Positions 2,015 to 63,107 of a DNA stretch of 63,107 bases are shown here, piece by piece. Under the pieces are notes generated by a model. It did not search any database, was not told where the DNA came from, and was given only the letters and a program-made list of their open reading frames with translations. The stretch spans positions 1-63,107 of IMG/VR virus record IMGVR_UViG_3300030104_000829. The stretch is one strand, 5' to 3'. This stretch comes from a virus (Duplodnaviria > Caudoviricetes). The position numbers were made by a program, and so were the translations under genes. Position 1 is the stretch's first letter; each line of letters starts with the position of its first letter.

Positions 2015-2047
2015 TATTATCTGTGTTAGAAATTATTTTGTTTGTAG
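2015..2047 (-). promoter_or_regulatory. bipartite early promoter motif, copy 3
   Basis: CTACAAACA-N15-CAGATAATA. Confidence 0.75.
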
Positions 2048-2085
2048 ACATAGTGAGAATCGAACTCACTTTAACCATTATGTCT
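2045..2085 (-). ncRNA. anticodon-less tRNA-like minihelix (acceptor stem + GG loop + T-arm)
   Basis: AGACATA-ATGGTTAAA-GTGAG-TTCGATT-CTCAC-TATGTCT-A: perfect 7-bp acceptor, 5-bp T-stem, canonical T-loop. Confidence 0.7.
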
Positions 2086-4647: not shown

Positions 4648-6204
4648 ATGTCAGACTTAATAGTCAAAAACCTTAACTTTGGTGACAAAGCTAGGGAAGA
4701 AGTATTTAAAGGTATAACAAAACTCACAAATGCTGTTAGCTCCACACTTGGAGCTAGCGGTAAATGTGTAATGTTAGAAGATCACAATGGTAAACCAGTT
4801 ATAACTAAAGATGGTGTAACTGTTGCCGATTCAGTAATATTGAGAAACCCTGTTGAAAACATGGGTGCTACACTTATAAAAGAAGCGGCACGCAAAACAG
4901 TTAGAGAAGCTGGAGACGGCACAACAACAGCAACAGTATTAGCGCATGCTATATTAGAAGAAGCTTATAAGGTTTCTAATAAAACAAACTCAAGAGAATT
5001 AAAAGAAGGTATAAACAAAAGTGTTAAAAAAGTAGTAAAATACTTAGAATCAATTTCAGTTCCAGTAAAAGGAGACATGCTAAAACAAGTTGCTTCAATA
5101 TCTACTAATAATGATGAAGTTCTTGGATCTATTATAGCAGATGCTTTTAATTCTGTAGAAAACACTGGTGTTGTTATGATGGAAACAGCTGAAGATGGAA
5201 AAACAAGTTTTGAAGTTATAGATGGAGTTCAATACGATAAAGGATTAAAAAACTCTCATTTTATAAATAATAAACAAAACAAGTCTGCTGAACTAGAAAA
5301 TCCACTAGTATTATTAATTGAATCACCAGTTGATACAATTAGACAAATTCAACCCGTGCTAGAGCACGTAATAAAAAACAATAAACCCTTGCTTATTATA
5401 GGCGATTTAGAACAGGGTGTTTTATCAGCTCTAGCAATGAATAAGATGAAGGGTAATATAAAAGTCAATGTTATAGACGCGCCTACATATGGAGTAAACA
5501 AACAGCAAATGCTACAAGATTTATCCATGCTTACTGGTGCTACTATAATAAATGAAGACTTAGGTGATGATATGGAGATGATACAAGTAGATCATTTAGG
5601 TTCATGCTTAAAAAGTGTTACCACCTATGATAATACTGTTCTTCAAATAGCTAATCAATCAGATGAAACAAAAGCTATAATTGAAGATATAAAAGAAAAA
5701 GTATTAAAAGAAAAAAATCCTAATTTAGTTATAAAATTAGAAAAAAGACTAGCAATGTTAGCTGCTAAAATAGCTATAGTTAAAGTAGGTGCTAATTCTG
5801 AAATTGAATTAAAAGAAAAACTAGATAGAGTCGAAGACGCTATTTGTGCTACTAAAGCTGCTGTTAAAGAAGGCATAGTTTCAGGTGGGGGTATTGCTTT
5901 GTTAAACGCTGCTTTAAAAATGAAAGGGAAAAGTGATGGTGAAAAAGTTTTAAGCAAAGCTATATTATCTCCGTATAAAACAATACTGCATAATGCTGGA
6001 ATTGAAAACAAAGAAATACCAGCAAAAGAAAAATATGGTATTGATGTAGTTACAGGAAATATGGTACATATGATTAATTACGGTATAATAGATCCGTTAT
6101 TAGTTACAAAAAGCGCTCTTCAAAACGCAGCTTCTGTAGCAACAACAATACTTTCCACTGATTGTGTAATCAATAATTTAAGAATAGATGAAAGCAATAG
6201 GTAG
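4648..6204 (+). CDS. groEL: phage group I chaperonin GroEL
   Basis: [32 protein letters not shown] motifs; no GGM tail. Confidence 0.97.
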
Positions 6205-25934: not shown

Positions 25935-28900
25935 ATGGCAAAAGTTAAAAATACTTTTATAAAATCCAAGATGAATAAAGACTTGGATGCTCGTATTATT
26001 GCTAACAATGAATACAGAAACGCTTTAAATGTACAAGTTAGTAAATCCGAAGGTGAAAATGTAGGTTCTTTAGAAAACGTATTAGGTAATAATTTAATAG
26101 CTAACGTAGCCGTACACACAGGTGTTAGTGGTTTGTATTGCATAGGACATGTAGAAGATGATTCTAATGGTAATATGTATTTATTTTTTACAAACTATTT
26201 AGATCAAGATCCAACCCAACTCAAGTATAGTTCAAGCGCTGAAAATTTTATATTAAAATGTAGCAGTTCTGGTGTATTAACAACACTGGTTAAAGGCGCT
26301 TTTTTAAATTTTTCAAAAACACATCTTATATACGGTATTAATATAGTTGAAAATTTATTATTTTGGACAGATAATAGAAACCAACCTAGAAAAATAAATA
26401 TAGATTTAGCTAATCCAACTAAACTTGCAATTCCAACTTATTATACTACAGAAGATCAAATATCTGTTGCCAAATACAATCCTTATAGCGCCATAGAGTT
26501 ATATGCTGAAAGTAAAGAATCTACAGCCCCTACAACTCAATACGAGACAACTATGAAGGATGTCACTAGTAAGTTTTATCCTAACGGTGGTAGTTCAAAA
26601 CTAAATACCCAAGCCTTATCAGGAGCAGCTAGCTTTGTAGTTAAAAATTTAAAAGGATATATAGCTCAAGCTCAAATACCTAATCCTTATGATAGTGGCG
26701 CTAACGTATCATATATAGATGCTTTAGGAAATATAGTACCAATACCTTCAGCATATGTTGATACCGTTGTTTATTCTGCTCCTGCTGGTGTTAATCCAGC
26801 TCTATGGACTGTTAATATATTAGGTGCAACTATACCTACAACGCTAGCAGCAGATACAGAAATAATTTTTAATTATAATAAATATTACGAAAAAGATTTT
26901 GCGGGTGATGACACTTATTTAGAAGATAAGTTTGTAAGATTTGCATATAGATTTAAATTTATAGATGATGAATATTCTTTATTCTCTACATTCACACAAT
27001 CTACATTTATACCTAGACAAGATGGGTATTTTATGTATGTTAAAGATGACGCTAGGGGAATGCCTGAGTTAGACGATCAAGCAGAGTCTTATAGAAGTAC
27101 TATAGTTTCTTTTGTAGAAAATAAAGTAGATAAAATACAACTAAGAATACCATTACCTTTTAAAAACTATGAATTAAAAGATAAATTGCTTTTAGAATCT
27201 ATTGATATACTATATAGAGAATCTGATCAAACAACTGTTAAAGTTGTTGATACAATAGAAGAGCAGGAAATTTTTAATCAATCAGCTAACTGTACCGTAA
27301 GAACAACTACCACGTCTAGTAATACTGTTTTAGTAGATAATGTAAAAGGAGGTATAAACGTAGGTAGTTATGTAACTGGTTTTGGTATAACTACAAATAT
27401 AACAGTAACTGCTTACCAACCTGATAATCCAAATATTAATCCTAGTACATCTGGTGAAATAACTTTAAGTTCACCTGTTTCTTTAGCTGCTAATGTAGAG
27501 TTAACTATAGGTGAACCTGAGTATTTTACATATGACTATCAGTCTCAAAAACCTTTTAAAACATTACCTGAAAAAGATTTAATAAGAGTTTATGACAAAA
27601 TACCTGTAAGAGCTTTAGCTCAAGAAGTTTCTGGTAACAGAGTTATATATGGTAATTTTTTAAATAAACACACTGCTCCTGATTTTATAGATTATCAAAC
27701 AGCTATTACAACTAAATCAGCATTTAACACATTAGAAGCACAGGGCGATGCTGTTGGACCTATTCCAATTGGATCTACACAAATAGAATTAATTAACATA
27801 AAAGATGTAATTTCTGTAGGTATGGTAGTTATATGTGACGGAGTTCCAGAAGGTACTTTAGTTACAGGTATAAATGCTACTACTATTGAAATAGACACGC
27901 CAACAACGGCTGTAATAGCTAACTTACAACTAGTTTTATTAGTTCCTGGTAGTGATATACAAAAAACAACTAGTAAAATAGAATATCCGAACTCTAGTGT
28001 AAAAACAAATAGAAATTATCAAATTGGAGTAGTGTTATCTGATAGATACGGTAGACAATCAGGTACTATTTTATCAAACAATAAAACAAGCATAACACTT
28101 CCAAATGGAGCTAGTTTTAAAGGTGATACTGCTTATTCCCCTTATAATGATGAAAACATAGACAATGATAGTTGGCCTGGAAACTCTATAAAAGTTTTAT
28201 TTAACAATGTTATAGGCGAGCAAAAAGACGCTCAATTAGCTTTACCTGGTGTTTATAATGGTGATCCTACGAGTGCAGATTATAATCCATTAGGTTGGTA
28301 TAGTTTTAAAATAGTTGTAAAACAAACAGAGCAAGATTATTACAATGTATATCTTCCTGGTATAATGGCATCGTATCCTAGCGACCAATCATTAGAAGTT
28401 GGTGAAACTTCACATACTGTTTTAATTAGTGATAATATAAATAAAGTACCAAGAGATTTAGTTGAAGTTGGTCCACAACAAGATCAATTTAGAGCATCTG
28501 TAAGGCTGTATGGAAGAGTTCAAAATTCTGCAACAAGTGTATCTGTAGGATCTACGAATTTAGGTTTAAGCAATGAACAGTATTATCCAGGTAGAACTTC
28601 TGATTTTGCTTCAACAGTTTCAACTGTAAGAGATTTATTTGATTACGATCCACAAACTCCACCTCAACCTAACTTTTTTCCTCAATTTTATTCATTAGAT
28701 TCAAATCCTTATATAGCAAGAATAAATACAGCTAATAAAATAGGTCAATTGTCTAATGTTAATTTTTCAGCAGTAAGTGGAACAGTGTCTATATCTGGAA
28801 CATCAAGTACTATAAGATTAAATAATGTTAGCGGAACAACTGGTACTATACTACCAGGAGATACAGTGCAAGGTCCAGGTTTTCCAAGTGATTTAACTTT

Positions 28901-35462: not shown

Positions 35463-38400
35463 ATGGAATTAGTAGAAAAAGTACAAGAACTACAAGCTAT
35501 TAAACCACCTTTAGATATCGATGAGATAAATAGAAGAATACAAGAGTGGAAAAAATCTACTGGTTATAAAGCACCAGAGGCGGTAGAAGTTAAAGAAGTA
35601 AAGACAAACGACTCCCAGACACAGGATCCGAGCTCGGAGTCAGAAGACAATACAGGATCCGAATCGGACGATGGATCTTCACAGCAACCACTTTTTAGTT
35701 TATCTTCAACATCAAGTTTGTCTAATAAAAAAGGTGGATTTGGAACAGGTGAGTTCGCTGGTTCATTAAATAAGTTTAGACAAGAAGAACAACAGAAAAA
35801 AATTAACCAATATACTTCTGTTGCTAAACCAAATGAAATTATAACTAAAAACGGTTATGATTTTAAGTATGATGAAAATGGTATATATTATTATAAACCT
35901 AAAGGATCTTCAGATGATAAATGGAAAACTTATAAAGATAAAAATGGTGCAGGTAATTTAGGTATAGCAGCTCAATTTGGTCATTCAGATTTTGACTCAA
36001 GTGCGTCATATTCCACAAGAAAGCAATTAAAAGAAGGTGAAGAAGTTTATAGTAGTATTGATGGTCAATTAATTATTACGGAGGGTAAACAATATACTTT
36101 GACTCCAGAAATGTTAGAATTAGAAAAAGAGTTTTTAGAAGCAACTTCTTTAACTGATAATGACAATATAGATATACAAAAAGATGTAGATAAATGGTTT
36201 TCAAAGAAAGTTATACCTCAATATAAAACAGAACCATATGTAGATCCATATTCAAAAACGGGTAATGTTAAGAAAAGAAAAGTTAAGACAGGTGAAATGA
36301 TACCTAATCCTGAGTGGGAGCAAGCTCAAATAAAATCAAAAGAAGCTTGGGATAAACTAGATCCCAAACCTACTGATATTTCAGAGCAGCAGTGGATTGA
36401 AAACAATATGAAAAAAACTTATACTGCTGAGTTAGTAGATAAGAAAGAAAAAGACAAACTAGAATCTTGGATAGAAGATCAAGATAGTAAATTTAACTGG
36501 AAAAGAGCGCTTCAGCTTTTTGGACCAGCAAGAGGTGCAGTTCTTGCCGGCGAAAGTGTTGTTGAAAAAGGCGACAAGCAAAAAGCAGTTAAATATATTC
36601 AAGATATAAGAAAACTTAATTTAGATAATAAAGAAAAAGATGCTAATAATTTTGCTAATTCGGCTAAAACTAGCATAGAAGCCTTAAATAATCAAATAAT
36701 TATCTTATCTAAAGCCAAATATCAAACTGAAGGGGAAGCAAAAAGAGGAAAGGCTTTAATAACTAAACTTACTGAAAAAAGAGATAAAATATTTGGACTT
36801 TATGAGTCTAAAATAGAGGACTTAAACACCATGATGCTTGAGCCTGAGTACAAAAACTTGAGCACAAGACTTGATTATTTAGAAAGAAATTTTAATCCTA
36901 TAGCTATTTTTGGTGAAAATGTTAAAATTGCCGCGGTTAACGCAGGAAAGTCTATACTTGATCTTGGACACATGGTTGTTAACGCACCAAATGCTTTTGG
37001 TATTACTGATAATCCTATAACATCAAAAGTTTTTAATGTTTTTTCACCTGGTGCTTCTTTAGCGGCTAAGTTTTTAAGATCAGACGCTTATACAGAAGCT
37101 AGGGGAAATTTAAATAATATAGTTGATGCTTATGTAGAGCAAACTTCTAATGGTATTGCTCATGCTCAAACTTTATCTGATTTAAAAGACGGTGATGATT
37201 GGGGTAGATATTTTTCAACGATGCTTGGAAGTCAGTCTATTAACACTGCTGTTATGTTTATGGGTGGTGGTGCTGCTTTACCTATATTAACAGGTCAAGC
37301 TGTTGGCTCTAGTTATCGCGAAATGGAAAAAGATAATGAAGAAAAAGCAGCTAAAGGTCAACCAGTTTTTTCTCCACTTCAAATGTATGGAGTAGCAATA
37401 GGTAATGGTATTTTAGAATTTGGTTCTGAAAGAATATCACTCGGTATAATAAATAGATCTAGAGCCGCTTTTAATTCTATGGGTCCTAGTGTAAGGCAGG
37501 GTTTTTCTCAACAAGTTGCTAGTTTATTAACAACAAAAGGAGCAACTAGAACAGCTAAAGGTATTGGATACTTTGGTTTGGACGCAACTAAAGAAGGTGC
37601 TTCAGAAGGTTTCGTTGAATTAGGTGGGAACATGTTTGACAGATATATATTAGGCAAAGATGTGAATCTTTTTGATGGTGTTCCAGACGCTACTTTTAGT
37701 GGAGCTTTTATGGCTAGTGGTGTTTATAAAGCACCAGCGTTATTTGCTAATGTATCTCAAATGGTTCAAGGGCCAGATAGTAATACTAAAATAGCTAACA
37801 ATAGGTCTAAAATATTAGAATTACAAAATACACTAATAGCTAATCCTAACATGTCAGATGCTAATAGAGCTAGATTAAACGATCAAATAGTAGATTTAAC
37901 CAGAAGCTCTAGTAATGAAATAAATAAAACACTAAACAGATTTAGTGAAATGGATAGATCTGAGATTGATGATTTATCTGATATAGAATTACAAGTAAAC
38001 AACAAAAGAAAGGCTATTGACGAAGTTAATTCTGATCCTAACTTTAATGATAAAGAACCTGAGATAAATAGAATTAAAAATGAAATACTAGAGCTTGAAA
38101 TACAAAAAAATAATATCTTAAAACCTTATATTGATGCTGATGCTAAACAAAGCAAAAAACCTAAATTAGATGGTTCAGGTAGTTTTACAGAATTTAATAT
38201 TCCACCAGTTGAATTAACTAATAGAATTCAAAAAGGTGCTGACGTTGTAGCTGATCAATTAGGTGATGTCGGTATTACTAGATTTGACACAACAGAAGAC
38301 ATTGTTGGAGCTTTTGAAACGTTAAAAGAACAAGGTATAAAGCTAGATGTAGCAACAAACGATGCTGGCGAGATACTAGATGCTAAAGACCAAGGGTATG

Positions 38401-41400
38401 GTATAATAGCTACTTTACCAGATGGAACTAAACAAATTGTTATAAACAATGCCTCAAGTGAAGCTGACGGTACTATACCCGCTGACAACCACGAGTTAAT
38501 ACACGCTTTTGCTAGTAAAGTAAATCCTGATCTTTTACTTAAAATGGGTATAGATTTAAAAAATAAACTAGATAACGATCCTTTTGTTAAAGTTGATGCT
38601 ACAACTAAATCTTTATTAAACGATTATGCAACTGACTTAAAAGATGGTAAAATAAGTGAAGCTACTTTTTATGAAGAAGTTATGGCTGTTACGAGTGACG
38701 CTTTAACTACTGGTGGTATTCAAATAACTGACCCAACTAAATTTGCTCAAACATGGAATTTTTTAGAAACTATAGGCTGGAATCAAAGTTTTAAAGACGG
38801 AGATCAAGTTATAGACTTTTTAAAAGGATTTAATAAAGATTTATTAAGTGGCGAAGGTTTATCGCAGCAAACATTAGATGCGGCACAAGTTGAATTAGAT
38901 ACTGAAAACCTTGATGAAGTTGACTTAGGCACTGTTAAAAAATCTAATAAAAAGCAGGAAAAAGTAGATAATGCAGCTGGACCTAAAGACGATGCTGGTA
39001 ATTACACAGTTACTAAAGCTGAATGGGATGCGGGTAAAGCTGATCAAGCAATAGGTGATTTATTTGGTAATAATACTCTTCAAGGTTTAATTGAAAGTAA
39101 AATACCTTCACCAAGTCAACAGCCTCCTGGTTTTAGTAAAGATGATTTTGTACAAGCAACCGTCACAGAGTTAATACCTCATATTAGAAACTTTAATCCA
39201 GAAGTAAACAATAGTTTATCTGGCTGGATAAATTCTCAATTATCTAATAAAATTGGTAATGTATTTAAAAAAGGAGAAGCAGGTACTAAAGATGTTTTTG
39301 AAGCAGATGTGACCGAAGCAAAAGGCGTTGTAGCTGAAACAGAAACAGAAGTAGAAACACAAGCACCTAGAAGAAAAAGAAGTCCAAAAGGAGATGCTAT
39401 TTATAGCTCTGTATTAACAGAAAACCTAGGCACAGATGTTGCTCCTGCTATTGAAACAGCAATACAGACTGATCTTAAAACGACACCTGTAGCTAATATG
39501 GCAGGTACTAGAAATATAGGTCCGGCTTTAGGTAGAACACTGGGAAAAGCTTTTGGTATTAATCCTAAAGTTTTTACAGACAAAAGACAAAACATACAGA
39601 AAAAAGATTTAAAAGGTTTAGTAAACTTAAAACAATATCTTAACAATAATGCTCAGCAAGATTTTAAAAACTTACCTGATGCTTATGATTCTAGTGGTAA
39701 ATCTACTTTTATACCTAACAACATATTAAATGCTTTATATGTTAAAGATGGAAAAGGTAAATGGAAATTAGATCCTAGCAAAACAGTTGCTGACTATAAA
39801 AACTTATTAGGTGATATAACTAGTGATAAACCTATATATAGAGCAGCAGAAGCTCAAACCATAAAAGGTTTAGCTGGATTATCTTTTAGAAATAAAATGT
39901 TTGAAACTGCTTTTCCCAAAGCAGAATTAAGAGTTGGTACTGGTGTTAAGTTTAGTAAAAAAGCAGATAAAAATAAAACAATAAAAAAACAACAAGAAGA
40001 TATTGTAGAAAGCTTTGGCGCTAAAGTAATAAAAAAAGGTAAAGAAGGAGTTAACAGGGTTTCAGAGTTTATAACTAGTGGTATGGTAGATGGTTTTGGA
40101 GATGCTACTTCATTGCTTTTAACACCATCAACGTGGGCTGGAGCAGGTAATAATATAGCTTCAGCTTTAAAAAGAGGTTTTTTAGCTATTAACGACGCTT
40201 CAAGAGCTTCAAAAAATAAAAAAGACTCTATAGATGGAGTTAAAAATGGTGATATACTTGAATTAAAAACTGTAAAAGGAGAAGTAAACCAAAAAACTAA
40301 TGTTAAAAACCTAGATAAAGATACACAAAGAGATATTAAAAATGCCATAGGTAGTCAAAAAGGTGCTGCTAAAGCTGAAAAGAACCAAGGACAACAAAAC
40401 TCTATTTTAAAAGGTAAAAACTTTATTCTTGATGGTATTAGAAAAATAGTTTTAAATAATAAATTTGATATAGCTGGTTTACAATTTATGCTAGGTAATC
40501 AAAATGCTAATGCTGGTTTAGCTAGAAACATGGCTACAATTAACAATGACGGTAGAACAAACAAAAAAGGTAAAGCATACGAAGAACATTGGTTTCCAAT
40601 GAGTGCTTGGGTAACAAACACATTAAAAGCTTCTGGTCTTAGTGACGCGGTGTGGAAGGGTTGGAAAGATTTGTCAAACGAAATTTACTATCAAGAAATA
40701 GTTAACAAAGATCTTCAAGAAAATCACTTAGATAAAACTTATGATGTAAAAATGCCAGATGGTTCTGTTGTAAAATGGAACTCAAAGAGTGGTTTGCATC
40801 CTTTACTAGACAATGCTATAAATTTAGGTTTAGAAACAGGTGATTTTAGTGATGCTAAGAGATTAGCTGATATAAGAAAATATCCTGGAAAAGATGTACA
40901 TACTGCTGTTAATCCATTTACACATGGTAGAAACGGCGTTAGTGATGCTGTTAGATATGATATTATAGTAAGTAAAGATTTACAATCAAATCCTAACATA
41001 CAGCATGCTACTAGCTCTTTAATAAATGAAATTATAATTGGAAAAATAACTTCTAAGCAAGCTCAAGAAAGAATAGACGCCTACGAAACAACAGCTAAAG
41101 ACGAAGTTAAGTCAAGTAAAAAAAATAATAAAACTTTTGGAGACAAAGTAAATCCTGATTCTACTATAGAAGATCAAATAAAAGATCTAGGTAATTATGA
41201 TAAAGCTGCAGACCTAGGTAGAGCATTAGATACTCCAACAAAAGGTATTAGTGTTTTTGATTTTGATGACACGTTAGCTAAAACAAAAGAAAAAGTAATA
41301 GTAAACAAAAGAGATGGTTCTACCGTAGAAATATCTGCATCTGAGTTTGCTCAACAAGCAGCTAATTTAGAAGCTGATGGAGCTGCATTTGATTTTACTA

Positions 41401-43922
41401 ATTTTGAAAAAGTTGCTGATGGTACATCAAAAGGACCATTAGCTGATCTTGCTTTAAAACGTCAAGATAAGTTTGGTAGTAAAGATATTTTTGTATTAAC
41501 AGCTAGACCTCAGGTTTCTGCTTCAGCAATTAAAACATTTTTAGATGGTATTGGTTTAAATTTACCTTTAGGAAATATAACAGGATTAGCAGACGGAACA
41601 CCAGGTGCAAAAGGTAGATGGGTTGCAAGTAAAGCAGCGGAAGGTTATAATGATTTTTATTTTGCTGATGATGCTGTAAAAAATGTTAAAGCAGTAAAAG
41701 AAGTATTAGATCAAATAGATGTTAAGTCTGACGTACAAATAGCTAAACAAAGTAAAAAGAAAAACTTTGATAAAATATTTAACGATATACTAGAAAGCTC
41801 TACCGGTATTGAGTCATTTAAAGAATATTCAAAAGCAAAAGCTCAAACTGTAGGTAAGAAAAAAGGTAAATTTAGTTTCTTTACTACACCTTCAGCTGAA
41901 GACTTTTTAGGTTTATTATATAAAACACTAGGTAAAGGAAAAGTTGGTGAAGCTCAAATAGATTTTTATAAGAAAAATTTATTAGACACTTACGATAGAG
42001 CTGAATTAGCTACAACAAGAGCTAAAATTCAAGCTGCTGCAGACTTTAAAAAGTTAAAAGGTAATTTAAAAACATTACCTAAAAGCTTAAGTAAAGAAAT
42101 GGGTTACGGTGGATTTACGCATTCACAAGCTGCAAGAGTTGCTGTATGGACTAGACAAGGTATGACTATACCTGGTCTTTCTAAAACTGATTTAAAAGCA
42201 TTAAATGATTTTGTAGATAAAAATGCTGAAATGAATACTCTTGTTGATGAATTAATGAAAATACAAAAAGGCAAAGAGTATCCAGCTCCAAGCGATAGTT
42301 GGTTGGCTGGAACTATTACCACAGATGTATTAAATGGTATAACAAAAGTAAACAGAAAAGAATATTTACAAGAGTGGCAAGAAAATGTAGACATTATATT
42401 TTCTGACAAAAACATGAACAAGTTGGAAGCCGCATACGGTCCTAAGTATGTAGAAGCTTTACGTGATCAATTACGTAGAATGAAGTCAGGATCTAATAGA
42501 CCTATCGGTGGTTCTAGGGTTGTTAACAACCTTTTAGATTGGCTTAATAACTCTGTAGGTGCTATTATGTTCTTAAACACTAGATCAGCCGTCTTACAAA
42601 CTCTTTCAGCAGTTAACTTTATAGGTGTTGGAAACAATAGTTTAATAAATTCTGCTAAAGCTTTTGCTAATCAAAAACAATATTGGAAAGATTTTAAGAC
42701 ATTAATGAACTCTCCTTACTTAGTTGAAAGACGTAATGGCTTAAAAATAAATGTAAGTGAATCTGAAATAGCCGATGCAGTTGCTGAAAGTTCTGATAAA
42801 CCTAAAGCTGCTTTAAATTATTTATTGAATAAAGGATTTGTATTAACTAGGTTTGCTGACAGTTTTGCTATTGCAACAGGTGGCGCTGGTTTCTATAGAA
42901 ATCAATTAGACATGTATATTAAGCAAGGTATGCCACAAGATCTTGCACAAAAACAAGCTTTTGAAGATTTTTATGCTATTGCAGAGAAAAATCAGCAATC
43001 AAGTAATCCAAGCAAAATATCACAACAACAAGCAAGCGGTGCTGGTCGTGTAATACTAGCTTTTGCTAATACACCAATGCAGTATGCTCGTATTATAAAA
43101 AGATCTACACAAGATCTAATAAGTGGTAGAGGAGATTGGAAGAAAAACGTAGGCACGATAGCTTTTTATGGTGTAGCACAAAACTTAATATTTAACGCCA
43201 TGCAAAACGCTTTATTTGCTGACGCTTTTGGTGAAGAAGAAGAAGAAGAAAAAGACAACAACAAAACAGGTAGAATAGCTAACGGTATGGCTGATTCTTT
43301 GTTAGATGGTTTAGGTATACAAGGTAAAGCTGCTTTAGCACTTAAAAACTCTTTAATAACTTTAGCTAAAGAAAATGATAAAAAATCACCTAAGTTTGTA
43401 AAAGCTGTTTATGACTTATTTGATTTTTCACCACCATTAGATTCTAAGTTTAGAAAATTAAGAGTTGCTGCTAATACTTTTACATGGGATAGACAGTTAA
43501 TGAAAGAAAAAGGATTTAGCTTAGATAACCCTGCTTATTTAGCTGGCGCACAGGTTATATCAGGTTTAACAAACCTACCTCTTGATAGAGCTATTCAAAA
43601 AATGAATAACATTAGAGGTATAATGAGTGAGCAATCTCAGAACTGGCAAAAAGTTGCTTTAGCTTTAGGTTGGTCAACTTGGGATGTTGGATTAGGATAT
43701 TATGGTGGGTTTGATCCTGTAAAACCTCTTACGCCAGAACAACAATATGATTTAGATGTTTCTAACATGAAAAAAGAAACTACATCTAAACAACAAAAAC
43801 AAATGTTGCTAGACTTAGGTTTAACAAGACAAGAGCTTAAAAAGTTAAGATACGAAGAAGATAGAGTTAAAAAAATAATTGAACTACAAAAAAAGAAAAA
43901 AAATGCCAGATCCAAAGAATAA
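35463..43922 (+). CDS. giant polyvalent cargo protein (HExxH peptidase, sigma-2-like, HAD domains)
   Basis: 2819 aa; NHELIH; FNPEVNNSLSGWIN; VFDFDDTL/LTARP/FADD. Confidence 0.75.
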   Translation: MELVEKVQELQAIKPPLDIDEINRRIQEWKKSTGYKAPEAVEVKEVKTNDSQTQDPSSESEDNTGSESDDGSSQQPLFSLSSTSSLSNKKGGFGTGEFAGSLNKFRQEEQQKKINQYTSVAKPNEIITKNGYDFKYDENGIYYYKPKGSSDDKWKTYKDKNGAGNLGIAAQFGHSDFDSSASYSTRKQLKEGEEVYSSIDGQLIITEGKQYTLTPEMLELEKEFLEATSLTDNDNIDIQKDVDKWFSKKVIPQYKTEPYVDPYSKTGNVKKRKVKTGEMIPNPEWEQAQIKSKEAWDKLDPKPTDISEQQWIENNMKKTYTAELVDKKEKDKLESWIEDQDSKFNWKRALQLFGPARGAVLAGESVVEKGDKQKAVKYIQDIRKLNLDNKEKDANNFANSAKTSIEALNNQIIILSKAKYQTEGEAKRGKALITKLTEKRDKIFGLYESKIEDLNTMMLEPEYKNLSTRLDYLERNFNPIAIFGENVKIAAVNAGKSILDLGHMVVNAPNAFGITDNPITSKVFNVFSPGASLAAKFLRSDAYTEARGNLNNIVDAYVEQTSNGIAHAQTLSDLKDGDDWGRYFSTMLGSQSINTAVMFMGGGAALPILTGQAVGSSYREMEKDNEEKAAKGQPVFSPLQMYGVAIGNGILEFGSERISLGIINRSRAAFNSMGPSVRQGFSQQVASLLTTKGATRTAKGIGYFGLDATKEGASEGFVELGGNMFDRYILGKDVNLFDGVPDATFSGAFMASGVYKAPALFANVSQMVQGPDSNTKIANNRSKILELQNTLIANPNMSDANRARLNDQIVDLTRSSSNEINKTLNRFSEMDRSEIDDLSDIELQVNNKRKAIDEVNSDPNFNDKEPEINRIKNEILELEIQKNNILKPYIDADAKQSKKPKLDGSGSFTEFNIPPVELTNRIQKGADVVADQLGDVGITRFDTTEDIVGAFETLKEQGIKLDVATNDAGEILDAKDQGYGIIATLPDGTKQIVINNASSEADGTIPADNHELIHAFASKVNPDLLLKMGIDLKNKLDNDPFVKVDATTKSLLNDYATDLKDGKISEATFYEEVMAVTSDALTTGGIQITDPTKFAQTWNFLETIGWNQSFKDGDQVIDFLKGFNKDLLSGEGLSQQTLDAAQVELDTENLDEVDLGTVKKSNKKQEKVDNAAGPKDDAGNYTVTKAEWDAGKADQAIGDLFGNNTLQGLIESKIPSPSQQPPGFSKDDFVQATVTELIPHIRNFNPEVNNSLSGWINSQLSNKIGNVFKKGEAGTKDVFEADVTEAKGVVAETETEVETQAPRRKRSPKGDAIYSSVLTENLGTDVAPAIETAIQTDLKTTPVANMAGTRNIGPALGRTLGKAFGINPKVFTDKRQNIQKKDLKGLVNLKQYLNNNAQQDFKNLPDAYDSSGKSTFIPNNILNALYVKDGKGKWKLDPSKTVADYKNLLGDITSDKPIYRAAEAQTIKGLAGLSFRNKMFETAFPKAELRVGTGVKFSKKADKNKTIKKQQEDIVESFGAKVIKKGKEGVNRVSEFITSGMVDGFGDATSLLLTPSTWAGAGNNIASALKRGFLAINDASRASKNKKDSIDGVKNGDILELKTVKGEVNQKTNVKNLDKDTQRDIKNAIGSQKGAAKAEKNQGQQNSILKGKNFILDGIRKIVLNNKFDIAGLQFMLGNQNANAGLARNMATINNDGRTNKKGKAYEEHWFPMSAWVTNTLKASGLSDAVWKGWKDLSNEIYYQEIVNKDLQENHLDKTYDVKMPDGSVVKWNSKSGLHPLLDNAINLGLETGDFSDAKRLADIRKYPGKDVHTAVNPFTHGRNGVSDAVRYDIIVSKDLQSNPNIQHATSSLINEIIIGKITSKQAQERIDAYETTAKDEVKSSKKNNKTFGDKVNPDSTIEDQIKDLGNYDKAADLGRALDTPTKGISVFDFDDTLAKTKEKVIVNKRDGSTVEISASEFAQQAANLEADGAAFDFTNFEKVADGTSKGPLADLALKRQDKFGSKDIFVLTARPQVSASAIKTFLDGIGLNLPLGNITGLADGTPGAKGRWVASKAAEGYNDFYFADDAVKNVKAVKEVLDQIDVKSDVQIAKQSKKKNFDKIFNDILESSTGIESFKEYSKAKAQTVGKKKGKFSFFTTPSAEDFLGLLYKTLGKGKVGEAQIDFYKKNLLDTYDRAELATTRAKIQAAADFKKLKGNLKTLPKSLSKEMGYGGFTHSQAARVAVWTRQGMTIPGLSKTDLKALNDFVDKNAEMNTLVDELMKIQKGKEYPAPSDSWLAGTITTDVLNGITKVNRKEYLQEWQENVDIIFSDKNMNKLEAAYGPKYVEALRDQLRRMKSGSNRPIGGSRVVNNLLDWLNNSVGAIMFLNTRSAVLQTLSAVNFIGVGNNSLINSAKAFANQKQYWKDFKTLMNSPYLVERRNGLKINVSESEIADAVAESSDKPKAALNYLLNKGFVLTRFADSFAIATGGAGFYRNQLDMYIKQGMPQDLAQKQAFEDFYAIAEKNQQSSNPSKISQQQASGAGRVILAFANTPMQYARIIKRSTQDLISGRGDWKKNVGTIAFYGVAQNLIFNAMQNALFADAFGEEEEEEKDNNKTGRIANGMADSLLDGLGIQGKAALALKNSLITLAKENDKKSPKFVKAVYDLFDFSPPLDSKFRKLRVAANTFTWDRQLMKEKGFSLDNPAYLAGAQVISGLTNLPLDRAIQKMNNIRGIMSEQSQNWQKVALALGWSTWDVGLGYYGGFDPVKPLTPEQQYDLDVSNMKKETTSKQQKQMLLDLGLTRQELKKLRYEEDRVKKIIELQKKKKNARSKE

Positions 43923-62497: not shown

Positions 62498-62704
62498 TTA
62501 CTCACCAAGTACAATGACGTCGCCATGAATAGACTCGTTTTCAATAATAGACTCTACATCTTGCCAATGATACCAGTCCATTTCTAGTTCTGTCATTGTT
62601 TGCTTAATTTGATTTACTTTGTTTTGTTGACCATTGTTGTCGCCAATAATATAACCACCGACAAATAGTACGCACGCTAGTGCAATCGCTTTTCTTCTGT
62701 TCAT
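62498..62704 (-). CDS. small membrane-anchored protein
   Basis: MNRRK plus hydrophobic segment. Confidence 0.55.
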   Translation of the reverse strand: MNRRKAIALACVLFVGGYIIGDNNGQQNKVNQIKQTMTELEMDWYHWQDVESIIENESIHGDVIVLGE

Positions 62705-62718
62705 ATATTTAATTTTAG

Positions 62719-62792
62719 GTGCGCCAGCAGGATTCGAACCTGCGACCTCTAGGTTATGAGCCTAGCGAGCTGACCAACTGCTCCACAGCGCA
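62719..62792 (-). tRNA. tRNA-Met(CAT), initiator-like D-arm, CCA not encoded
   Basis: TGCGCTG/TGGCGCA acceptor, GAGC/GCTC D-stem, CTAGG-CTCATAA-CCTAG, GCAGG-TTCGAAT-CCTGC. Confidence 0.92.
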
Positions 62793-62798
62793 ATATAG

Positions 62799-62877
62799 TG
62801 GAGGTGGACAGAATCGAACTGTCTTCCGTAATAATTCCTTTGCAGGCTTTTTACTACGTCAAAACCATATCACCCCC
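62799..62877 (-). ncRNA. minimal tmRNA: tRNA-like domain only
   Basis: GGGGGTGATATGGTTTTGAC 5' end, G3:U70, A73, 8-bp P2-like helix with GNRA hairpin, GACAG-TTCGATT-CTGTC T-arm. Confidence 0.8.
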
Positions 62878-62964: not shown

Positions 62965-63107
62965 GCTAGCAATTCACTTATGTGCGTGTAATACACTTCC
63001 GATTTCCATAAGGACTCACATACACACCTAATTAAGCTACTCGTCTAGCTATTTACGCTTCACAACCGTGCACTACTATTTCAAGCTGTGATTGTTCTTC
63101 GCGCTAT

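Follow-up and report, generated by a model that had tools for sequence, protein, structure and literature searches.

A conserved phage gene for a tmRNA apparently reduced to its alanine-accepting tRNA-like domain

The DNA analysed here (the window), 63,107 bases long, comprises an entire IMG/VR virus record that is rated 98% complete and has a GC content of about 33%, and it encodes a terminase, portal and tail proteins, a GroEL-like protein, ribonucleotide reductase, a primase-helicase and a ligase. The record represents a permuted complete genome, because in the contigs of relatives base 63107 of the window runs on into base 1. All 87 host-naming phage records that matched the terminase named Flavobacteriaceae (Flavobacterium, Cellulophaga, Tenacibaculum or Maribacter); the known relatives of the window phage are podophages of this family, its host is probably a member of the Bacteroidota, and the sequencing runs containing the region are marine metagenomes. 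The GroEL-like chaperonin gene lies at 4648-6204 (plus strand; PHROG 5725, E 1.3e-134), and in MW202828.1, the closest complete relative, groEL and a 10-kDa chaperonin are annotated. Within the structural genes, the 2819-aa ORF at 35463-43922 (plus strand) had no PHROG match.

Close to the right end of the window, on the minus strand, lies the element that the original prediction had described as a phage tmRNA made only of the tRNA-like domain (TLD), and the sequence given there was located exactly (Table 1). This gene, referred to below as the mini-tmRNA gene, does not encode the 3' CCA, the discriminator A being followed by CUA. The tRNA-Met(CAU) gene downstream of it is separated by 13 nt from ORF 62498-62704, the first of the minus-strand gene block, and this adjacency provides a context for co-transcription and for RNase P/Z processing. 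The tRNA-Met, like the mini-tmRNA, has CUA, not CCA, at its 3' end. Five IMG/VR relatives (L002, L005, L007, L008 and L012) carry the mini-tmRNA at the same position; the tRNA-Met at this site is missing from all five and was found in the window phage only, the next gene region in the relatives following directly after the mini-tmRNA.

Table 1. Coordinates of the mini-tmRNA gene, its parts and the neighbouring tRNA gene in the window
Feature	Positions	Strand	Basis and remarks
TLD-only tmRNA gene	62799..62877	-	79 nt, G1 to discriminator A; RF00023, fold
Acceptor stem, 5' strand GGGGGUG	62871..62877	-	fold; G3 = 62875
Stemless D-loop analogue AUAUGGUUUUGA	62859..62870	-	aligned with RF00023 consensus GAucuGGaUUCGAC
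Helix P2, 5' strand CGUAGUAA	62851..62858	-	fold, covariation
AAAG junction (A-rich), hairpin CCU-GCAA-AGG and AA	62835..62850	-	fold
Helix P2, 3' strand UUAUUACG	62827..62834	-	fold
T-arm GACAG-UUCGAUU-CUGUC	62807..62823	-	fold, RF00023 alignment
Acceptor stem, 3' strand CACCUCC	62800..62806	-	G3's partner U = 62802; discriminator A = 62799
tRNA-Met(CAU)	62718..62792	-	ARAGORN; Rfam tRNA 64.5 bits; 6 nt downstream of the mini-tmRNA

Other elements were seen in the surrounding DNA. Upstream of the mini-tmRNA, a block of about 80 nt (63026-63107, minus strand), which continues into base 1, was conserved in L002, L005 and L012 amid varying surroundings and was present in RNA-library contigs of high depth (128x in run X16 and 26x in run X19); it had no Rfam match and no folding signal, and could be a promoter/leader region or a small RNA. 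Directly 5' of the mini-tmRNA, an element of about 118 nt is found in L002 (4286-4405, plus strand), L007, L008 and L012; it is tRNA-like, with an 8-bp terminal stem and the T-arm GGTTCGAATCC, and was called by neither ARAGORN nor Rfam. At this site the window and L005 have a different sequence, bounded by a 9-bp long-range complement. The folding energies of these upstream elements were no better than those of shuffles. In addition, a 41-nt 'minihelix' at 2045-2085 (minus strand) has a 7-bp acceptor-like stem, a 10-nt GG-containing linker, a 5-bp T stem with the loop UUCGAUU and a discriminator A, and lacks G3:U. Taken alone, this element is weak (20.2 bits with Rfam tRNA, E 0.76; 23 bits with the class model described below), and in the copy present in L007 both stems are kept by compensatory changes.

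All parts of the fold originally described for the mini-tmRNA were present in its MFE structure, namely a 7-bp acceptor stem (nt 1-7 with 72-78) in which G3:U76 is equivalent to G3:U70, an unpaired discriminator A79, a 12-nt D-loop analogue without a stem, an 8-bp helix P2 (nt 20-27 with 44-51), a 3-bp capping hairpin with a GCAA loop, and a 5-bp T stem with the loop UUCGAUU. The MFE was -26.4 kcal/mol (z = -3.2), and one of 200 shuffles folded as well. The sequence GG..UU(C/U)GA in a stemless D-loop is a hallmark of tmRNA, and the D-loop analogue, which had been claimed to be of this type, aligned with the RF00023 consensus. Just 16 nt (nt 28-43) lie between the strands of P2, with no resume codon, tag frame or stop codon among them, the junction, hairpin and AA occupying the position of the tag ORF and pseudoknots of a full tmRNA; pseudoknots PK1-PK4 are missing, and the space for them is absent, one 3-bp GCAA hairpin standing there instead. 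The element failed the test for a canonical tRNA (RF00005), both the D-stem and the anticodon arm being absent from the fold.

We found that the Rfam tmRNA model RF00023 aligns end to end (model positions 1-374) with 62796-62877 of the minus strand at 64.7 bits, the gathering score being 47 bits, with E values of 4.6e-25 on 508 bases and 1.4e-26 on the whole record. The alignment skips 304 model positions, those of the tag ORF and pseudoknots, and has 12 nt there instead, in agreement with the earlier statement that hundreds of nucleotides are gone and a GNRA hairpin is left. The acceptor stem with G3:U70, A73, the D-loop analogue, the GGA(C/A) junction and the T-arm thus align with bacterial SsrA from end to end, whereas the resume codon, tag frame, stop codon and four pseudoknots of SsrA are lacking, and the mini-tmRNA would therefore be unable to perform the messenger half of trans-translation. 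When four bacterial genomes were scored with RF00023 as a control, tRNAs and all else apart from the true tmRNA came to no more than 33.5 bits; the mini-tmRNA, at 64.7 bits, is therefore not a tRNA cross-hit.

Among the checks put forward with the original prediction, that with Infernal supported it, through an RF00023 match that emerges only with permissive filters, and that with ARAGORN gave no call. On the window, both ARAGORN and a default gathering-mode cmscan missed the mini-tmRNA and reported the neighbouring tRNA-Met alone. The class model R1 gave the element 89.5 bits, a score by construction, as the window is in the seed alignment. Among 44 mini-tmRNA loci, none was called correctly by ARAGORN, which instead produced three spurious long 'tmRNA' and one 'tRNA-Val', all overlapping mini-tmRNAs. 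The long calls (at L014, L015 and L028) have implausible tag peptides and join an unrelated start further upstream to the 3' end of a mini-tmRNA, and calls built in this way are likely to be a source of wrong phage tmRNA annotations. The class is absent from annotation because the usual finders miss or mis-call its genes.

In the five relatives the mini-tmRNA is 87-99% identical to that of the window, compared with 66-85% (DNA) for the flanking genes, which shows that the gene is under purifying selection. One base differs in L002, the identities are 96.5-98.8% in L005, L007 and L012, and in L008 (87%) the helix is maintained by additional paired changes. The sole difference from four relatives is a G:U pair of P2 in the window that is G:C in them (U at 62831 to C), and a contig of run X15 has the same change (A>G at 62831 on the plus strand).

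These data bear on whether the element is a non-functional remnant, either of a decayed phage or host ssrA or of the core of an ssrA-derived attachment site. Although ssrA is commonly used for integration and ssrA fragments are found in prophages, according to passages of PMC9004378, such an origin is very improbable, as both halves of the domain are intact and paired, the gene is better conserved than its flanks, the helices covary over at least 90 distinct sequences (see below), the record has no integrase, and the known relatives, as stated above, are Flavobacteriaceae podophages. The original prediction had likewise argued against a decayed remnant, and the alternative that it named as refuting, an att site made of a duplicated ssrA end, found no support. 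Specifically, an attP core derived from ssrA, which would consist of the 3' part only, beside an integrase, was rejected, since the 5' and 3' halves are paired and PF00589 (integrase) had no match in the record.

Homologues were collected by pattern scans of IMG/VR. The first two scans, in which only the 5' D-loop region and the T-loop were fixed and the 3' strand of the acceptor stem was left free, yielded 43 loci with 30 distinct sequences, and these, together with the window and phage DS6A, formed an alignment of 32 rows. The named structure was paired in 92.4% of the cells, compared with 42-52% when it was slid along the alignment, and in 95.4% in a model-fitted alignment of the 32 sequences. 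Changes on both sides were present at 16 of 23 pairs, and the covariation score was reached by none of 500 shuffles, so that the covariation check in related phages, also put forward originally, came out in favour of the structure. Acceptor pairs 1-7 were 100% paired; P2 had double-sided changes at seven of its eight pairs; the capping hairpin, with its pairs 83-85% paired, had them at all three; and the T stem, 100% paired, at four of five. G3:U70 and A73 are identity elements of AlaRS; their presence in the window had been pointed out at the outset, and we found each of them in 32 of 32 sequences, neither being set by the search patterns.

A looser pattern, which fixed the 3' TCCA, gave at least 119 loci. 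Among the matches listed, 69 of 71 new loci reached at least 58 bits with the class model, and a second set of 58 distinct sequences showed the same covariation; because the pattern itself imposed G3:U and A73, their presence in this set is not counted as evidence. In total, at least 90 distinct sequences of one architecture, from at least 112 sources, were obtained from a few narrow scans of IMG/VR. The script kept 114 of the 119 aligned rows among the matches listed, and the GC content of these loci ranged from 27 to 69%. Among the 90 distinct sequences from the matches listed, the median length was 81 nt (range 61-82), nine were short forms without the inner hairpin, and 30 had AAAGCC at the junction. 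A tRNA gene lay within 200 nt of 20 of the 114 copies among the matches listed, some of which were inside tRNA arrays, and for 86 of the 114 there was no tRNA in the surrounding DNA examined. The Rfam score, the five relatives and the covariation in 32 plus 58 distinct homologues support the identity originally proposed, a conserved phage gene for a tmRNA reduced to a predicted alanine-accepting TLD.

Among 50,697 phage records, blastn with the region and with the 82 nt alone revealed no homologue of the window element, the matches being tRNA-Met or short chance pieces, and the class model found a mini-tmRNA in none of the five closest complete or cultured terminase relatives, so that the gene is accessory. 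Three other mini-tmRNAs were also used as blastn queries; one of them had no match, and one led to the cultured Streptomyces phage Shaeky (MT701595.1), which has a TLD-only tmRNA at 42932-43012 (plus strand; locus L209:1491-1571), unannotated and situated between tRNA-Phe and tRNA-Leu of its tRNA array, with 66.4 bits in the class model and 59.3 bits with RF00023. Matches of these queries in Stenotrophomonas, Ruegeria and Tunturiibacter sequences were rejected as permuted full tmRNAs, and permuted tmRNAs were identified in phages Marzo, RpAliso and Tunturi_4. In Tunturiibacter phage Tunturi_4 (PP885687.1, L211:1121-1882) the permuted two-piece tmRNA (RF04321, 79.2 bits) starts directly after gp53, annotated as an RF-1-domain (ArfB-like) gene, two ribosome-rescue parts thus being adjacent in one phage.

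The novelty implied by the original prediction was too high, since a TLD-only phage tmRNA is already in print, with one example, in an entry 'Mycobacterium phage DS6A (TLD only)' of Hudson, Lau and Williams 2014 (PMC4131195). A passage of that paper, citing Mao et al. 2009, states that tmRNA is strongly inhibited by a molecule of similar type, whether or not it can be charged, and that titration of SmpB may be the cause; the 2025 tmRNA database paper (PMC11915505) restates the inhibition of E. coli tmRNA by the DS6A type. Our full-text literature searches found no survey of TLD-only or CDS-less phage tmRNAs, and the class appears to be far larger and more diverse than the searchable literature suggests. 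In JN698994 we found the DS6A element at 28478-28560, and it had 43.2 bits with RF00023, below the cut-off, and 63.5 bits with class model R1. Like the window element it is phage-encoded and of similar size (83 nt, compared with 79 nt plus CCA), it has the same order of parts (G3:U acceptor, stemless D-loop, a single helix with an A-rich junction and a short capping hairpin, and T-arm), and the tag frame is absent from both. However, the two are only distantly alike in sequence (43.2 versus 64.7 bits with RF00023), the host of DS6A belongs to the Actinomycetota whereas that of the window phage is probably one of the Bacteroidota, DS6A is temperate (with an annotated integrase) whereas the window record has no integrase, and the window gene adjoins tRNA-Met at the head of a replication-gene block.

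Reduction to the TLD has also occurred independently in organelles, and the comparison with mitochondrial tmRNAs made originally is apt in the light of passages in PMC4131195 and PMC11915505, the latter describing CDS-less plastid forms as well as mitochondrial tmRNAs without a tag frame. As those sources present it, the jakobid and oomycete mitochondrial forms and the plastid forms of Mallomonadaceae (about 65 bp) resemble the window RNA in this reduction, with SmpB encoded elsewhere. The organellar RNA, however, is the organelle's sole tmRNA, in vertical descent from a bacterial ancestor, whereas the window RNA would be introduced by a virus, as an additional copy, into a cell with a complete tmRNA of its own, so that competition between the two is to be expected. 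Complete phage tmRNAs, described in PMC4131195 and PMC9004378, are of one piece in mycobacteriophages and Bacillus phage G and of two pieces in marine phages such as Melnitz; these are likewise phage-borne ssrA homologues, often close to tRNA genes, but they keep the tag frame and can complete trans-translation, which the window RNA cannot. Engineered TLD fragments also consist of the tRNA-like domain alone, but are laboratory constructs, whereas the window RNA is natural and under selection.

The acceptor stem and D-loop were near-identical to those of Bacteroidota tmRNAs in a comparison whose rows were pre-selected by likeness, one Bacteroidota genome among such rows sharing 20 of 21 nt of the 5' end and an identical 3' CACCUCCA, and 38 genomes in a sample of 401 from the Bacteroidota matched at no more than three mismatches. 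A scan of genome contigs with the 5' 20-mer gave 20 matches, of which four are tmRNAs and the others look like chance, with no mini-tmRNA among the 20. The Bacteroidota matches indicate a TLD of Bacteroidota-like type and no more, and lend weak support to a host in this phylum. No SmpB, RF-1/ArfB, Pth or integrase domain was found in the 98%-complete record, and no SmpB- or ArfB-like gene was found by tblastn in 150 sources (1.39 Mb) around the homologues; with no SmpB in the phage, the partner would be that of the host. When the 1116 ORFs lying no more than 4 kb from 45 mini-tmRNAs were compared all-vs-all, no gene family was common across lineages beyond phage kinship, which the common neighbours (RusA, DNA methylase, exonuclease, WhiB and HTH proteins) track.

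A sigma-70 scan found no minus-strand site upstream of the mini-tmRNA. The Bacteroidota-type motif TAnnTTTG was rejected as promoter evidence, with 93 sites compared with about 85 expected, and the only one near the mini-tmRNA abuts G1, without a correctly spaced TTG. Among RNA-library contigs from four runs, those of X15 alone cover the mini-tmRNA, through short contigs of a relative; a 107-nt contig from an oligo-dT RNA library spans 62801-62877, is derived from a relative and may be DNA carry-over. As such contigs neither show transcript ends nor exclude DNA, no claim of expression is made from them.

The role that we consider most likely is to compete with the host's tmRNA for SmpB and for stalled ribosomes, and we give about an even chance (roughly 50%) to the window element being a functional phage TLD-only tmRNA that competes with host tmRNA and suppresses SsrA tagging. 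Since it lacks a resume codon, a tag frame and a stop codon, the RNA would act as a competitor and could not carry out the messenger half of trans-translation. In the proposed sequence of events, the mini-tmRNA would be co-transcribed with tRNA-Met at the start of the replication-gene block on the minus strand and excised by host RNase P and 3' processing enzymes, CCA being added by the host; host AlaRS would charge it with alanine through G3:U70/A73, and the elbow formed by the stemless D-loop and the T-loop would bind host SmpB. It would then compete with host tmRNA for SmpB and, once charged, also for EF-Tu and stalled ribosomes, so that SsrA tagging and the degradation of nascent proteins and non-stop mRNAs would be suppressed during infection and phage proteins translated from phage mRNAs that are truncated or cleaved would be spared. 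Weighing against this reading, some phages require tmRNA function, and it is a conjecture that a phage would gain from blocking trans-translation. In its favour, PMC6207430 reports that tagging by tmRNA can restrict the propagation of phages in recoded E. coli when their mRNAs stall in translation. Competition with loss of tagging is the best supported role, and inhibition is what the papers cited above describe for the DS6A homologue in E. coli. An SmpB decoy and a tag-free rescue had both been put forward in the original prediction, and of the two the decoy has, in DS6A, an experimental precedent described by those citing papers.

Titration of SmpB alone needs no charging, according to a remark in PMC4131195. 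Yet G3:U70 and A73 are invariant, which suggests that the charged form matters and fits action at the ribosome, and this also keeps alive the main rival to competition, a rescue without tagging. In such a rescue the alanylated mini-tmRNA would enter stalled ribosomes with host SmpB and EF-Tu and accept the nascent chain, and the peptidyl-RNA would be freed by host factors (by drop-off with Pth or by ArfB-type hydrolysis), so that ribosomes would be recycled for the phage and the proteins left unmarked, by analogy with what has been proposed for mitochondrial tmRNAs lacking a tag frame. We consider this possible but unlikely. That G3:U70 and A73 were kept in all 32 sequences free to vary argues that charging matters, the tight tRNA-like length (median 81 nt, 61-82, in the 90 distinct sequences among the matches listed) also speaks for rescue, and the 20 of 114 listed copies within 200 nt of tRNA genes would fit a role in supporting translation. 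In addition, peptidyl transfer to a TLD-only RNA on the ribosome is reported in vitro (Shimizu and Ueda 2006, as cited in a passage of PMC3895274), and, according to PMC11915505, organellar tmRNAs that lack the CDS are found together with SmpB and are believed to aid with incomplete mRNAs. On the other hand, termination without resume and stop codons has no known route, a phage hydrolase (RF-1 domain or Pth) is absent from the window and SmpB/ArfB-like genes were not found near the homologues, and the sole published experiment on such a phage RNA, as described by the citing papers, gave inhibition.

A further explanation, which we regard as improbable, is that the RNA is a decoy or sponge for another target, such as a host or defence nuclease acting on tmRNA or tRNA-like RNA, RNase R, or another tRNA-binding enzyme. 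The stability and localisation of RNase R depend on tmRNA-SmpB. The A-rich junction and CC...GG hairpin are kept in sequence (AAAGCC in 30 of the 90 listed sequences) and may be a partner site, and a passage of PMC11662646 describes a phage anti-CRISPR protein that associates with tRNA/tmRNA fragments, which bind RNase R; but no protein neighbour is conserved across the mini-tmRNA lineages, and all features conserved throughout the class are the AlaRS and SmpB features of tmRNA.

Returning to competition with host tmRNA, it can be suggested tentatively, and with the odds against it, that the mini-tmRNAs are a widespread phage device (27-69% GC across hosts) that has to carry alanine in order to work and that, by means of the host's AlaRS, SmpB and EF-Tu, seizes stalled ribosomes and ends trans-translation after one untagged alanine. 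If this is true, phage proteins from mRNAs cut by host defences or toxins would evade SsrA-directed proteolysis, and the RNA would be a counter-defence against ribosome quality control and not a simple SmpB sponge. The class, which consists mostly of unannotated phage RNAs invisible to routine annotation, probably disturbs or diverts the process by which the host rescues stalled ribosomes. The invariant alanine identity elements pose a sharp question, whether charging is necessary or not. If mini-tmRNAs do shut down or redirect trans-translation, ribosome rescue would be a regular target of phage takeover, and the tmRNA-SmpB system could be inhibited or probed with these small natural RNAs.
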